From contig OZ024740.1 in assembly GCA_964016885.1 (NCBI GenBank), positions 164,672,001 through 164,736,000 on the forward strand: 64,000 nucleotides of DNA, in the 5' to 3' direction. Shown here piece by piece: positions 204-63,970 of the stretch. The notes under the pieces were generated by a model. That model did not search any database and had not been told where the DNA came from. It saw only the letters and a list, made by a program, of their open reading frames with translations. Position 1 is the first letter of the stretch. Each line of letters begins with the position of its first letter. A program made the position numbers and the translations under genes. Source of the DNA: Eledone cirrhosa (lineage: Eukaryota).

Positions 204-263
204 AGTCTAACGCTTGAGATAGCAGAGTCTTCACGTTTCGGAACCTTTTCCTTCATCAGATCA
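204..263 (-). ncRNA. Degenerate type I hammerhead ribozyme motif
   Basis: Reverse complement reads CTGATGA-a-GGAA(aagg)TTCC-GAAACG...CGTT-aga. Core and helix II are good; helix I is poor. Confidence 0.5.
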
Positions 264-1173
264 TAGATTGAGAAATAAAAGATAAATAGATATATAAAGA
301 GTGAAAAGAGGAAGAAATGGGGGGAAAAATACATGTGATATTCAGTCAGCCACTTTTTAGATTTGCTGGTGAAGGGGTATCTGACTAGTTAGAGCGGTTT
401 AGGAAGGGAGGTAATCATTGTAGATGTGGACATGTCTCCCCCCCCACTCTCTCTCTCTCTCTCTTTATATATATATATATATATATATATATATATATAT
501 ATATATATATATATATATATATATATAATCCATTTCTTATTTTATGTGCATGCATCATTTTAATTTCACCCAGAAAGACATAGAACACTCATGCATGCAT
601 ACATACATCCACAAATACATGCATACACGTACATATGCATGTATGTGCATGTATGTATGCACATATCTGTGTTTTATAGCGTTGTGGGTAAAGATAAATT
701 GAAGAATGCACATAAAAATTAGAAAGGTTATTTATTTAGTTTATACGTCTAAGCAATTAAGACCACCCATTATGCATGATAAAGAAAGCGTTGTGATGCG
801 TCTGTAAGTATATCGGTATTTATGTATGTATTTATATGTGTGTGGGTGTGCATTTGTGTATCAGTGTGTCTAGGTGTGTACATATTTATAGATATATGGG
901 TGTGATAGTATATTTATTTAATAACAGAACAGTGTAATTCTCTCTTATTCCGTTGCTCTACGAACGCAGGGAAGCATGTATACGCACACGTGCGCACACA
1001 CACATAAATACATGCACTCACGCACACGCACACACAGGATCGCATACACACAAACACACACATATTTATATATATATATATATAATAAGTGTGTATATGT
1101 ATGGATGCGTGCATCAATTATATATATATACATATATAAATTACACAATTATCAGTTATGTTCAAATCATTTA

Positions 1174-1230
1174 ATTGCTGACAATCGTTTCTTCCAAACT
1201 TTCGTTTGGCATCATCGGAGGATTAGCAAT
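1174..1230 (-). ncRNA. Degenerate HHR (left arm)
   Basis: rc: attgct..cCGATGA-tgccaaac(gaaa)gtttgga-a-GAAAC-gatt-GTC-agcaat. GAAAC/GUC intact; CUGAUGA damaged. Confidence 0.6.
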
Positions 1231-1550
1231 TTTTGTACATATAATTAACTCCCTTTTCAACTGAACAATCATATAGATACATATATATTTAATGTTGTGA
1301 ACAACAGTTTCGTATTTACAGGGTGTAATGGATGCGACATATATTATACGAGAATTCTACTCTCTTGTATTATCTGTCGCATGTATTCCACTCTGTGCTT
1401 TTAATTTGAATTTGAATGTTTGTACAATTCTCGTATAATATATGTCGCATCCATTCCACCCTGTAAATACGAAACTGTTGTTCACAACATCAATATATAT
1501 GTATCTATATGATTGTTCAGTTGAATAGGAGGTTAATTATATGTACAAAT

Positions 1551-59869: not shown

Positions 59870-61780
59870 AGCATAGGCGATTCCATTAGTACAGACCCAC
59901 CCACCCATACTTGTATACCTCTGGATGCGTGTGTATGTCTATATACACATGTGCATTCATACAATAGAGCATACACAAATATACTCTTAAGCATACACTT
60001 GAACATTTTTCAAATGCAACCTGGGGTATTATTATTTCGTTGTGTTCACATAAGTGCGTACATTCACCTAATCCCGGTATACACACACAGCGCACGGTTG
60101 AGGGCACGCATTCATGCGTATATTAGGATAATCGCTCGTCTTGTGTGGGTCACTCCGGTGTGGGGTGGGGGTGGTGGTTCATCAGGTTAAAAAAACGTGG
60201 TTTTGCTGACTCCTAACCAGTAGAGGATGTGGTGGACAATCCACTTTGGGGACCACAAACTATGCGTGGGTGTTGTTGCCCATTGGTCATTGGTACGGGG
60301 TGTAGGGAGCCCTACAGGGGGGGGGGCGCCAATTTCATGTATCTCGCCAGTTCATTAGAGCTTGCTCAGTATGTGAGGAGCTACGGGAGTGGGCCTATGG
60401 GGGCGGGGTGTGTGAAAAAGTACGGGGCGGTGCTAGCCTATTATAGGGGTGCCGAAATTACTACTAAGGGGTGGTCGGAAGGGGTAGGGGAGAAAAAGGG
60501 CGCTGTGGGAGGCCGTATCCGGGGTTTATCCATATAGCTTGAGGAAAGTTCCCGTCCTAAGGTACCTGCAGGTGCCGAATAATTCTGTTTAATAGCTTGG
60601 TTCCGCGATGAAGTATCTCGAGTGTCTCACTAAGACAGAGGTTGCAAATACCAGACACACTTCTGTGTGGGGGAACCTTTCTAACCACAGGACCAGACCA
60701 AAGAGTGCGGGGTCCCTTCAAGTTTGAGCTTCCAGATCAATTCAGAAAGGGCCGTACATTTCCTCTTTTCTACTCTGTTAAAGGAGTGGCGATGGTTATA
60801 CCACCTATCTTTGAAGCTCATCGCCGTGGATCCTATGTAGTGGTGCTCCGAGTTAGGGTTTGTGACCCTGCACCTGTAGACTACGTTTTTCGTCATGCAT
60901 TCATTACTAAGGGGGCATAGTGATGGTTTTCTGCAATTGCATGACTTTTTAAGCCACAGCACATGTACCGTGGGGTTACCATCAGGTGGAGTTGGCTGTG
61001 TAGCCCCGGCATTCAGCACAGGTTCGTTGTATTGCGCTGTGATAGTTGGGCCTGTCCGGGGTCTGGTGTGTCCCGTGTGCTGGTTACTTTGGGTGGCGCC
61101 GGGGTTTACGGTGGTAATAGAGGCAGTGAGCCTACTCCTATTTATGCCGGCTATGTGATGGGCTATGGAACGTGTGGTTGAGTAGGATAGTTTCACCGTG
61201 TGCCTGTTGAATATTTTATGATACCCCAAGGAAACATTTATCCAGTACTCTAAAGAATGTTCTAGCCAGGCTGCTATGTAGACCCACCGAGTACGGGGGG
61301 TTATACCATGCGACTTTCCTGGTCTTATTCCTACGGGGTAGTTGGGTGTCCGCCGTGGTCCATCGCGGGGTGGTGTACAGCTCAGGTCGAGCTCGGTTGA
61401 TGTTACTCAGGTGTGCAGAGCGGGTACCATTCGTTGTTCGGTCACTATCAAGAGGGATATATGGGCCCACCGTGGGGCTATGAACCTGCGCGGTGTGGCC
61501 TCCCTGCTCAATGAGGGTTCGTCGGACGGTGGGGCATGGGAAGGGGTGCCTATGCTCCGCATTACAGTGGTCTTCAGTGATGTCGGTATTAGACCGGTGG
61601 GGTATGCGGGACCTTCTACCGAGGGTGGTGGCAGTTAGGGGTCTGGGAGTATTACTACTGGTCACCGTGATATTAGGTGGGCGACTCATGCCCCTGAGGG
61701 TATTGGCTCGGGGCATCCTTGGGTCATCTCGATCATGTCCCTTAGGGTTATAGCTGATCCTATGGCTGTGGGACGCCTTG
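59870..61780 (-). mobile_element. Penelope-like element remnant (approximate limits)
   Basis: GC-richer block around the GIY-YIG remnant; ends are not sharply defined. Confidence 0.6.
60560..61340 (-). pseudogene. Second Naiad-like PLE ORF remnant (linker plus GIY-YIG), frameshifted
   Basis: VAWYNPPYS, IFNRHTVKLSYS, CNCRKPSLCPL..C, NVVYRC..YIGST..FKDRW.NH, TALSELIWKLK; then CNLCLSE..LLN..ELFGTCRY. Confidence 0.88.
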
Positions 61781-63904
61781 GCTAGCGCTGAGTTATAATA
61801 ATCAGCATTACTATTGAAACGTTAGTGGTGTACATTCTGTTGCAAGCATTTAAATCACGAACATTATAGGAGGATAACTTGATATCTTTCCTCTCTGCTT
61901 TCATTAACAACAGTTCAAGAGTTGTAGTTTCTCTACTTCCACCAGATTCGAAGTTCCCCCAAATCGTCATGATAGATTTGTTTCCTCATTTGACTAAATT
62001 GTATGGACTAAACAATTCTGTTATTTTAACAAATTGGCTGCCTAACTATGTCGACGTGAGTGTTATGTGAACTCAGGAAAGCCGGAGTAAAACAGCGAGA
62101 TTTAGATATGATCATTCTATTTGTCTGTCTGCTGTCTTAAAATTGCTGTGTTAGCGAGAAAAATAATGAAAAGGAAAGAAGGCACTAAAAGAATAATAAG
62201 GGAATACAAGAGAGACACAAAAATACTAATAGAAAAATTAAAAAACGGAACAATAAATGCATAATAAGAGAATAGAGTTAGTAGGAATAAAGCAAGGAAT
62301 ATACAGCAGGAAGAAAGAAATTGTTGAGGAGAAAAAACAAGAAATATTGATGAATGAATAAATGAATAAGAATCATTAAAGAAACAATATAAAGTAAAAG
62401 CACGAAAAATGATGAATAAATGTAAAATTAAATGGAACAAATAATAAACTAGAAGCAGAAAAGTGTAAGAAAAATGTATAAAAGATAGCGAGACAAAAAA
62501 AGGAAAATGAATGAAGGAACGAGAAAATGTAAATAATTGGATTTTCTATAAACGACATTAACAACAACAAAAGCAACATCAACATTTATAATTGCAACAA
62601 TAATAAGACGATGTTGCCAACAACAACATGAGGGACAGCTAAAAAAAAAAAATCAGAACACAAAAAACGAGTGACAATTACAAAATAACTGCAGCTATAA
62701 AATATGTAGTAATGTATATGTACGAAACACAGGGAAATCGCAAAGTAAGAAAAGCTGCAAATGACTGAATATGTATATAATACACACACACACACACACA
62801 CACACACACACACACACACACACACACACACACGCGCGCGCACGCACACACGCACGCACACACACACACACACACACACACACACACACACACACACACA
62901 CACACACACACACACACATATATATATATATAGTGAGAAAGTAAACCACCATCAGTAACAACATCAACAACAAGTGACAAAATAAGAGACACCCCACCAA
63001 GAACAACAAACATCGAAGCAGCAAATTCGATATCGCTGATTATCAATAGTGTAGTGTGTCGTGCGCATTATTCAAGCAATGTGTAAGTATATAGAAACAC
63101 ACAAACATACAGACACACAAGTACATACACAACCACATGCTCTGGCATGTATCTACTTTGCGGTTGCAGAGAATTTTATGGATATTTACAGCCGTCAAGC
63201 CACCGTTTAATTAGACTTCCGATGAAATGTCGTCTTTAGCACAATACAAGGGTTTATCGTAATAAGAAACAAACATATCATAAAATGTCACGCATGTCAA
63301 ATAATAATAATGATTTCTTTTATTGGTCACAAGGATACAATACATCGAGGACATCCAGGGTAAAATCAAGACACAGTGGGGTTTACATCTAGTAAAATAT
63401 AGGAGGCCTCCGAAGTTAAAACAGTAGGAATTAAAATAATAGAAACTGTAATAAATACACATAAGAATAGAAAACAATAGCAAATATCAACAAAGATAAG
63501 TTTTAGGCTAATTCCTAGGAGAAACCTCACACAAAACCCTGAAATATTTTATTGCCTCACGAACATTGGAAGGGATATTTCCTGGTTTCTTTTCACTTGC
63601 TATGAAAAGCACACTCAGATTAGGTCCGTTTTGCCTCATCATCAATCTCACTGCTCTCACCCATAACTGCCACTAGAAGGCAGCACCTTCCTCGAAGTAG
63701 TTGAATAGGGATTGGTCGGAGAGGAAAATGTGTGCTCTCAAACCCATTTAGACATGTCCACCATACAGATTCCTTCACATTAACTACCAGGCAGAGGAAG
63801 AATTGTCATACTTTCCTTCTAATATATATATATATATATATATATAATGGAAAAATTTGAACAGGAACAAAACAGAGAGGCAGTACAACGAATGTTTATT
63901 AATT

Positions 63905-63970
63905 TCACGCTCTGGAGAGTGGGGTGTTGTTGGGGAACGACGTTTCGGGCATAAGCCCTTCCTCAGGTGA
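63905..63970 (-). ncRNA. HHR-like motif, cleavage site uncertain
   Basis: rc: tcac-CTGAGGA-a-gggc(ttat)gccc-GAAACG...gtga-aattAATAAA; near (TA)n. Confidence 0.55.

Follow-up and report, generated by a model that had tools for sequence, protein, structure and literature searches.

The ingredients of hammerhead-bearing Penelope-like elements (PLEs) have been published: PLE hammerheads, (TA)n targeting by the Hydra clade, including an octopus family, and retrozymes as PLE derivatives (PMC8557442, PMC4209133, PMC7229834). Hydra-clade elements (Craig et al. 2021, PMC8557442) are described with a C-terminal GIY-YIG domain, RWK-like, DKT, CxCx5C, CxxC and CxH motifs, (TA)n targets, a type I hammerhead near the 3' end, and tandem and inverted insertions with a tail; they are generally <3 kb, with tails of 30-40 nt, and the one octopus family given there, Hydra-1_Obim, is annotated 'no pLTR'. 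One published dispersed-hammerhead system comprises thousands of single motifs (2,000-9,000 per genome) in several families, with motifs paired on opposite strands at distances of 100-700 bp, a helix III that is palindromic, a U3-A8 core variant and a proposed circle-templated, more-than-unit copying. Animal non-LTR retrozymes (Cervera and de la Pena 2020, PMC7229834; Li, Clavereau and Pollet 2026, bioRxiv 10.64898/2026.07.22.740005) are non-coding, low-GC tandem units of 51-972 bp with one type I hammerhead each, for which a PLE origin has been proposed. The consulted sections of these two surveys examine no cephalopod; axolotl has 126,247 motifs in a genome ~9 times larger than that of Eledone, and the 2026 preprint found cleavage in 1 of 9 retrozyme dimers tested. 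In the Poseidon element PAc (Frangieh et al. 2024, PMC11167929), the tail is set by two internal reverse-transcription starts that lie beyond the hammerhead, both strands of AT-rich DNA are nicked, and the ribozyme, which required protein, was dispensable for insertion in vitro, with no reads ending at the hammerhead cut.

Here we analyze a 64,000-nt stretch of the Eledone cirrhosa genome (the window), which shares the listed features of the Hydra clade, of the dispersed-hammerhead system and of the retrozymes, and probably the two downstream starts and the two-strand nicking of AT-rich DNA of Poseidon PAc, an element of another clade. It differs from the Hydra elements of PMC8557442 in its longer units (3.5-3.9 kb) and tails (70-140 nt), and in belonging to a genome with at least six coding families, at 28-57% protein identity, instead of one octopus family. 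It differs from the dispersed-hammerhead system in number, with about 2-3 x 10^5 motifs estimated genome-wide, many with a helix II of 26-97 nt, and from the described retrozymes in the length of two of its units and in a full PLE insertion footprint in (TA)n. The kind of system is already known; its density is unusually high. The original prediction had left open whether it was described in this lineage: the kinds are published, and a single octopus Hydra family, hammerhead-bearing and directed to (TA)n, is given in the supplement of PMC8557442. We consider it probable that the motifs of the window belong to a community of Hydra-clade PLEs that extends across the genome, each motif lying close to the 3' end of a truncated coding element or of a protein-free tandem repeat likely copied by such elements, and that the RNA is cut as predicted from the hammerhead structure.

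Results and Discussion

Hammerhead motifs in the window

A strict type I descriptor (helix I ≥4 bp, CUGANGA, helix II closure, GAAA, helix III, UH) returned 18 rows in the window, equivalent to 17 distinct predicted type I hammerheads (the rows at 37851 and 37915 have one GAAA in common), each with the CUGANGA/GAAA/UH core, helices I-III and an open helix I. This number is far in excess of dinucleotide-shuffled sequence, as had been anticipated: 180 shuffles with three block sizes gave a mean of 0.12-0.17 and a maximum of 2, the reversed sequence 1, and the complement 0. The 17 complete-core sites originally listed stood up in large part: 14 pass the descriptor, and 19528 (a mutated family C copy), 29690 (a mutated family D copy) and 51827 fail. 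The last has a complete core, a 5-bp helix I and a fold z of -4.5, and fails solely on the helix II closing rule, a trait common to family J. Three passing sites (18509, 37915 and 39748) were absent from that list. Site 37801 passes formally, but a deletion relative to its family leaves a helix II of 8 nt, and its predicted fold is not that of a hammerhead (monomer z +0.5); the monomers at 42370 (z -1.3), 2430 (z -1.7) and 39748 (z -0.6) also fold little better than shuffles. The features of the window are collected in Table 1; a repeat search over its whole length was dominated by microsatellites.

Table 1. Hammerheads (HHR), their carriers and related features, in window positions.
Feature	Position	Strand	Description
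Degenerate HHR, further family	228..264	-	
Other degenerate cores	1552-1600(+), 8713-8762(+), 63938-63971(-)		
Family A insertion	2235..3603	both	(TA)n at both ends; internal-deletion derivative of 2.8-kb non-coding master unit; two tandem 465-bp non-coding units (-) and one inverted, circularly permuted full unit
Family A type I HHRs	2430-2487(-), 2895-2952(-), 3490-3547(+)		
Type-SGC hammerhead, predicted	11153-11256(-); 32041-32144(-); 8933-9035(-)		second listed is second copy; third is degenerate
Family B fold-back	10626..10988		5'-truncated PLE end; HHRs 10674-10762(-), 10850-10942(+)
Family K HHR	18509..18620	+	endonuclease ORF 468 nt upstream in locus L111
Family C	18691..19685		478-bp non-coding tandem unit, partial second copy, inverted arm
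Family C HHRs	19051-19129(+); 19529-19607(+)		second is a mutated copy
Family P	19793..23237		palindromic insertion of autonomous Hydra-type PLE; ORF remnant 21154-22057(-)
Family P variant HHR	19885-19979	-	family core in locus L128 is U3:A8
Family P short fold-backs	37034-37203, 37435-37636 (span 37034..37636)		3' ends, cut off inside helix II
Further family P pieces	11410-11600, 12831-12933		
Family D	29288..29946	+	partial tandem of 428-bp non-coding unit; mutated HHR 29687-29729
Family D copy	42134..42617	+	HHR 42370-42412
Family E truncated end	31658..31814	-	HHR 31696-31756
Family E truncated end	58704..58860	+	HHR 58762-58822
Family G1 HHR	37800..37840	-	E-related; helix II deleted
Family G2 HHR	37915..37957	+	
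Family G3 fold-back	38071..38298		about 235 bp; HHRs 38092-38152(-), 38217-38277(+); identical turn-point at other loci
Family H HHR	39748..39819	-	end of coding PLE
Family I HHR	50641..50695	-	truncated end of young coding Hydra-type PLE
Family J HHR	51827..51900	+	in ~1.25-kb non-coding unit; SINE inserted directly 3' of HHR
Family F	59020..61377	-	PLE ORF remnant 60535-61377, ~1.3 kb 3' UTR, HHR 59149-59204, tail, (TA)n

The motif density is 0.27 per kb in the window. In a sample of 38 stretches of 10 kb it is 0.11 per kb, with 0-6 motifs in each and 42 in all, against a mean of 0.6 in controls. Each of the counted groups has tens of thousands of copies, and one has 65,666 exact genome matches, compared with 0 for the reversed pattern. 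The helices are kept by compensatory change: among 18 non-redundant sequences, all of the E/H group and chosen with a descriptor that demanded only helix II closure, 13 of 20 pairs covary (0 of 500 shuffles), including 9 of 9 in helix II. The Rfam hammerhead models gave no window match at the gathering score, and at the E-value threshold there was no hammerhead among the matches listed (150 of 341), which were dominated by miRNA hairpins. The lack of a gathering-level score agrees with a reading of the motifs as chance matches in AT-rich, hairpin-rich repeats, but the counts in window and sample, the exact matches and the covarying stems rule that reading out, and its probability is negligible.

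Coding Hydra-type elements

Six of the 17 listed sites (families B, E, F and I) are 5'-truncated ends of protein-coding Hydra-clade PLEs. A coding partner lies upstream on the same strand in family E (locus L213, a 3.9-kb pLTR-ORF-pLTR unit, as well as L214 and L219), at 7 of 14 other loci in family H, and at 2 of 19 loci in family I, where four more have it on the inverted arm and L284 has a 350-aa frame. It was found in 2 of 2 extended loci of family B, where the degenerate endonuclease ORF lies ~1.4 kb upstream in copies outside the window, and at 1 of 4 loci of family K. For family F it is in the window itself, as an ORF remnant continuous with the 59149 ribozyme. With a second PLE ORF remnant in the window, the description of the carriers as non-coding does not hold. 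Family G1 showed single ORF matches 208 and 2,083 nt away, and no upstream ORF was found for G2 or the families of 259, 1557 and 63966 among the loci examined. Two candidate arrangements were rejected: family I pairs 9-10 kb apart resemble a giant element, but they represent independent insertions or else a segmental repeat, and a LINE lies between them; and the PLE ORF in L057 lies on the opposite strand from family C, beyond a microsatellite.

The elements have a single ORF, reverse transcriptase (RT) followed by GIY-YIG, with an intact frame in L128 and a broken frame but complete layout in L213. The L128 protein contains RWR, DKT, CxCx5C, CxxC and CxH, and a GIY stretch with one Cys only (no CCHH). 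The CxCx5C linker is also present in I, F, B and E (L213, L214) and absent from the piece of H that was inspected. Every coding partner whose sequence covers the linker is Hydra-type. By these motifs and by-eye comparison with the printed Hydra-1_Obim protein, we provisionally assign families P, E, F, I, B and H to the Hydra clade. Pfam gave a weak GIY-YIG match for family F (E 0.007) and no RT domain in L128, L284 or L219. There are 73,507 first-look PLE candidates and many open frames near 784 aa, and family I copies are 99-100% identical.

(TA)n targets and 3' ends

The predicted adjacency to (TA)n was borne out, and is polar: (TA)5 or longer lies ≤250 nt downstream of 14 of 18 window motifs and 38 of 42 sampled motifs (random positions, 23-26%), and upstream of only 6 of 18 and 19 of 42, respectively. 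When the best 40 copies per family were scored, the tested families stopped at one or two fixed points 10-200 nt beyond the predicted cut, followed by (TA)n. Two peaks were observed in 8 of 10 families: about 50 and 190 nt past the cut in A, 50 and 130 nt in B, E and J, 50 and 150 nt in I, 30 and 100 nt in G3, 10 and 90 nt in P, and 10 and 70 nt plus 190 nt in C; family D has a single peak, and family H, with 10 copies, gives no clear peaks. Many copies consist of a partial tandem with an inverted arm, and their 5' ends are ragged. Fixed ends followed by (TA)n are a PLE insertion signature, and both counts place Hydra-type insertions in (TA)n. Together with the autonomous Hydra-type PLEs of this genome, the partial tandems, inverted arms, double 3' ends and downstream (TA)n support the PLE-driven, TA-targeted part of the original prediction.

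Its hammerhead-then-AATAAA layout is not a general feature: AATAAA occurs ≤30 nt from the cut in 11 of 18 window motifs (background 4%) but in only 8 of 42 sampled motifs, 7 of which overlap helix I. The short 3' end is the same in the families without AATAAA (C, G3, J and P), and copies run out in (TA)n rather than poly(A). These observations bear on the reading that the motifs belong to a separate system of ~10 unrelated, wholly non-autonomous ribozyme mini-elements with a poly(A) signal after the ribozyme. Four window families are indeed non-coding units, the window frequency of AATAAA fits, and most families are mutually unalignable as DNA. However, F and I are 82% alike over 67 nt, E, G1 and H have core flanks in common, and B, E, F, H, I, K and P are joined to PLE ORFs, with Hydra motifs common to the coding partners. 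For the coding families that reading is contradicted, and overall we regard it as very improbable. The 17 sites are not one single non-autonomous system: the term suits the eight in families A, C, D and J, and not the six truncated coding ends.

Protein-free tandem units

Families A, C, D and J are retrozyme-like: each is built of tandem non-coding units that contain a single type I hammerhead apiece (the remaining 3 of the 17 listed sites belong to G1 and G3). Full family A units are 2,816 and 2,804 bp long, and the longest open frame in C (478 bp) and D (428-434 bp) is 68-98 aa; family D reaches 12 full matches in one array. C, D and the 465-bp A derivative fall inside the retrozyme range of about 150-1000 bp, and A (2.8 kb) and J (about 1,250 bp) outside it. 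Searches (tblastn) with PLE fragments gave no match in the four units, and the best 40 copies per family revealed no coding element that ends in the same way, a depth at which a less common coding version may have been missed. In one member of the D cluster an ORF lies 1,104 nt upstream and no (TA)n intervenes. When coding parents of family A were sought through an 85%-identical subfamily, with a query that included the inverted arm, only fold-backs were recovered. A and J are young, with 38 of the top copies about 100% (A) and 97-99% (J) identical; because all four are fixed non-coding units at many loci, A and J being young, they appear to have moved without an ORF.

Could all carriers be dead, 5'-truncated or internally deleted PLEs, with tandems made by linear read-through or local DNA duplication and ribozymes idle in most copies? 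The six truncated coding ends fit this account, as does the depth over the A unit, which peaks >100-fold at the ribozyme end (run X2, contigs); PMC4209133 took most single motifs as truncated PLEs, and hammerhead mutants insert in vitro all the same (PMC11167929). Yet the fixed units at many separate loci, the youth of A and J, the covariation of helix II across subfamilies and the threefold occurrence of one deletion junction in a single insertion all argue against it, and we judge it unlikely, though a serious contender. Less likely still is mobilization of the protein-free units by a LINE or a Naiad PLE instead of Hydra PLEs. The missing Hydra partner for A, C, D and J would fit, intact LINE ORFs are frequent in the loci, and Naiads also target (TA)n with tandem and inverted insertions (PMC8557442). 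Against this, the two fixed ends, tail, inverted arm and type I hammerhead agree with the Hydra families of the same genome, LINEs leave poly(A) or repeat tails, and the octopus Naiads described in PMC8557442 are long-inactivated remnants, whereas A and J are very young.

The 465-bp deletion junction of family A has two exact matches in 3.0 Gb, both at the window locus, where a third copy differs by one substitution. Its restriction to this locus in three copies favors a circular RNA template. Circle and linear models both need a lost or unassembled allele as the source, as no source locus is in the assembly. An intron reading of the deletion was rejected: there are no GT-AG ends on either strand, and the junction has a 1-nt overlap. 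What is new here is the scale, the 2.8-kb non-coding unit and the locus-restricted junction.

Proposed mechanism

In the Hydra-clade reading that we favor, the PLE protein would nick (TA)n, bind a structure directly downstream of the ribozyme and start reverse transcription at two internal positions of the RNA, one from each DNA strand, as occurs in vitro for a lizard PLE. Most events would halt early, so that the ribozyme end would be multiplied far more than the body, and A, C, D and J, which keep that end, would use the protein in trans. Self-cleavage is predicted for the hammerheads: in a tandem transcript, the segment from one ribozyme to the next would be released and then circularize. 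Cutting would mostly involve dimers, since helix III is a short palindrome. Copying round the circle would yield more-than-unit tandems. Because this genome combines intact Hydra ORFs with young protein-free passengers and with 3' ends that have been mapped, trans-mobilization and the circle-template model become directly testable, in a group of elements that conserve the hammerhead although the single in vitro system can dispense with it. In addition, one strict hammerhead per ~10-15 kb can escape Rfam, and many of the fold-backs that pass as 'unknown', MITE-like or miRNA-like in genomes of this kind are PLE ends.

A bolder version is tentative, and we lean slightly against it: this would be the densest animal ribozyme community yet described, in which Hydra proteins roll round circular RNAs of many sizes, up to 2.8 kb, from two internal starts, the 465-bp insertion (2235-3603) being the footprint of one event. 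It would also include a cleaving type-SGC hammerhead, extrapolated to ~30,000 copies, and the same architecture would be found at the ends of the published octopus Naiads, which were reported without hammerheads.

A predicted permuted hammerhead

Type-SGC (non-circularly permuted) hammerheads (HRIMA-1) are known from metatranscriptomes and metagenomes (Eckert et al. 2023, PMC10085705). Three predicted copies, one of them degenerate, lie in the window and follow the published arrangement, in which the cleavage site comes first, then GAAA and then CUGANGA; helices I and III are paired. If they cleave, a layout known from environmental RNA would be placed in an animal retroelement. Unlike the published examples, these are in an animal genome, and an additional strand upstream seems to divide their helix II: it is not formed directly between the GAAA and CUGANGA blocks, and each side pairs instead with an upstream strand. 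In eight sequences of this family, from which the structure itself was drawn, 13 of 33 pairs covary (0 of 500 shuffles).

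Hammerhead motifs in the window

We scanned the window with a strict descriptor of the type I hammerhead and obtained 17 distinct motifs, compared with a mean of 0.12-0.17 and a maximum of 2 in 180 dinucleotide shuffles. The original prediction had listed 17 hammerhead sites, of which 14 satisfy the descriptor, and the observation is real and was correctly spotted. Sites 19528 and 29690 are mutated copies, and site 51827 fails solely on the helix II closure rule; helix II is mostly lost at 37801. Three sites beyond the original list are added by the descriptor (18509, 37915 and 39748). 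Rfam detects none of the window's type I motifs at gathering score.

Among 18 non-redundant motifs of the E and H families, two-sided changes are found in 13 of 20 pairs, a value equalled in 0 of 500 shuffles, and 91% of positions pair in the true alignment vs 35-56% in slid controls. A perfectly palindromic helix III is present in 11 of the 18 window rows, and in 22 of the 42 motifs sampled genome-wide. Located on the assembly's largest contig, the window is microsatellite-rich, with no long host ORF seen in it; its repeat landscape and the similarity of its elements to Penelope-like sequences published from octopus point to an octopod cephalopod. (TA)n follows the motifs on the 3' side far above chance; the proposed association with AATAAA is frequent near motifs in the window but does not extend genome-wide.

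Genome-wide abundance

Across 38 ten-kb stretches taken at round coordinates (379.6 kb total), we found 42 strict motifs, compared with 0.6 in shuffles, and straight extrapolation gives 3.3 x 10^5 motifs genome-wide. Searched in the whole genome, an exact pattern for the E group matches 65,666 times and one for family D 10,858 times, while a pattern covering the 3' half of the ribozyme of family P matches 35,836 times; each has 0 control matches. The E pattern is fitted by 12 of the 42 sampled motifs where 8 are expected, indicating that the sample overcounts, and the calibrated total is therefore about 2.3 x 10^5. The window carries motifs at ∼2.4 times the density of the sample, which still falls inside the range seen among single stretches (0-6 per 10 kb). 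Applied to all retrieved loci, the descriptor gives 461 matches that form 53 clusters; 25 clusters have a single member, and some of these may be false positives.

Coding and protein-free carriers

We searched the genome with each of the families A, B, C, D, E, H, I and J and with the G cluster, obtaining 915-3,696 first-look candidates per search; the 40 best of each were scored, and selected loci were extended. Family E leads to a 3.9-kb unit with an ORF between two pseudo-LTRs (L213), and ORFs are also present in L214 and L219. An endonuclease lies immediately upstream of H in 7/14 other loci, upstream of B in both extended loci, upstream of K in 1/4 loci, and upstream of I on the same strand in 2/19 loci and on the inverted arm in 4 more, with a 350-aa frame in L284. 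The F ribozyme is continuous with an ORF remnant inside the window. Proteins of the coding families share 28-57% identity, so the original description of the carriers as unrelated was overstated.

The ORF remnant at 21154-22057 belongs to family P, for which a first look gives 73,507 candidates; numerous frames of close to 784 aa are open, and some of them lie within 3,531-bp tandems. This is an autonomous Hydra-type Penelope-like element (PLE) family with many intact frames; the L128 protein carries the Hydra motifs given in PMC8557442. Its ribozyme core is U3:A8, a variant previously recorded in PMC4209133. A second U3:A8 family, absent from the window, is cluster F10 (3 members in sampled stretches). 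Very short family P fold-backs score in Rfam as miRNA-like hairpins.

Other carriers are protein-free. Family A is a 2.8-kb unit whose two complete examples hold only low-complexity frames of ≤163 aa; the unit at 2023-4838 of locus L031 has an internal duplication of ∼510 bp and shorter 70-115-bp repeats. The C unit measures 478 bp; the D unit measures 428-434 bp and forms arrays of 5 units and of at least 12 units. The J unit spans ∼1.25 kb, and in L280 and L291 its tail is fused directly to the start of the unit. PLE fragments gave no tblastn match in A, C, D or J units. Folded as circles, the A, C and D units reach only modest stability (z -2.1 to -2.7, with 25 shuffles for each unit). The claim of non-autonomy thus holds for 8 of the 17 listed sites, which lie in non-coding units, and fails for 6 that are ends of coding elements; the remaining 3 are placed in neither class. 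No parent is assigned to G1, G2 or G3.

Insertion ends and fold-backs

When 3' ends are measured from the predicted cut, 8 of the 10 families show two peaks. In insertions that combine a tandem with an inverted arm, one outer end usually falls at one peak and the second at the other. This footprint agrees with a lizard PLE, for which PMC11167929 shows two internal reverse-transcription start sites and two-strand nicking, and on our reading of the two-peak ends both target strands would be primed.

In 20/20 distinct loci listed, G3 fold-backs share one turn-point, a short palindrome that lies ∼40 nt upstream of the ribozyme; the sample is biased because the search query is itself a fold-back. 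Because private substitutions occur in both arms (L258, L263, L265, L269, L273), one arm was likely copied anew from the other. Fold-backs with fixed turn-points (G3, and an A-related subfamily near query position 170; also L296-L325) behave like palindromes of MITE size that carry a ribozyme on each strand.

The family A insertion in the window is built of 465-bp units, an internally deleted version of the 2.8-kb unit, with one arm of 1.94 units and the other of one full permuted unit. The deletion junction is matched exactly at 2 places in the 3.0-Gb assembly, both at the window locus, where a third copy differs by one change. Since three identical template jumps are unlikely, the template probably already carried the deletion and was read beyond its end. 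We somewhat favor a circle as this template over a tandem source missing from the assembly.

A predicted permuted family

A descriptor for the predicted type-SGC hammerhead (non-circularly permuted; block order cleavage site, GAAA, CUGANGA) matches twice in the window, against a mean of 0.05 and a maximum of 1 in 100 shuffles; a third copy (8933-9035) is degenerate. The 379.6-kb sample contains 5 matches, 1 of them an A-rich false match, compared with 0.35 in shuffles. Helices I and III are paired, each helix II side pairs with an upstream strand, and 13/33 pairs covary among 8 sequences. Compared by eye only, the published 3' ends of Naiad_Obim and Naiad_Ovul (PMC8557442) have the same block order and pairings.

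Relation to previous work

The system overall is mostly of a known kind. PMC4209133 describes dispersed PLE hammerheads, opposite-strand pairs and a circle model. PMC8557442 covers the Hydra clade, (TA)n targets and a hammerhead in Hydra-1_Obim, and retrozymes are treated in PMC7229834 and a 2026 preprint (Li, Clavereau and Pollet, bioRxiv 10.64898/2026.07.22.740005). For the giant squid, the published count of Rfam hammerheads is 235, and a 2026 octopus repeat annotation (PMC13282606) reports 31 recently active Penelope-like families, "ribozyme" being absent from its main text. In the accessible literature (subscription papers, Repbase and Dfam being outside the search), we found neither a survey of cephalopod hammerheads or retrozymes nor a permuted hammerhead in Naiads. 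The present analysis adds an estimate of motif number, passenger units that are long and non-coding, a map of the 3' ends, and the predicted permuted family.

Other repeats in the window

Three ORF fragments without a Pfam match resemble LINE and DNA-transposon proteins. An abundant SINE-like repeat of ∼180 bp frequently lies within a few bases of a hammerhead on its 3' side, as at 31696 and 51827 and in L083, L108 and L233, which suggests a preference for an AT-rich target there. The remaining repeats are listed below.

Features of the window by position
Feature	Position	Strand	Basis or remark
Predicted type-SGC hammerhead, helix II split onto upstream strand	11153-11256, 32041-32144, 8933-9035	-	first two by descriptor; third copy degenerate
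Family P insertion	19793-23237		
Family P ORF remnant	21154-22057	-	
Fixed-turn-point fold-back	38071-38298		
Family D copy, fold-back at its 5' junction	42085-42241		best Rfam match in window (MIR2606-like, below gathering score)
ORF fragments	3766-4654, 40980-41393	-	
ORF fragment	43451-43876	+	
SINE-like repeat	5144-5304, 8257-8461, 26521-27063, 31447-31636, 33355-33564, 34405-34609, 44562-44698, 51917-52101		
Inverted-arm repeat beside (TA)n	18205-18429, 39112-39597		lacks canonical hammerhead core; also adjoins family A in L032
510-bp fold-back	1134-1643		family's degenerate ribozyme at 1552-1600; intact relatives in L144, L145
Imperfect (TGG/TGA)n array	35337-36737		1.4 kb, strong G skew
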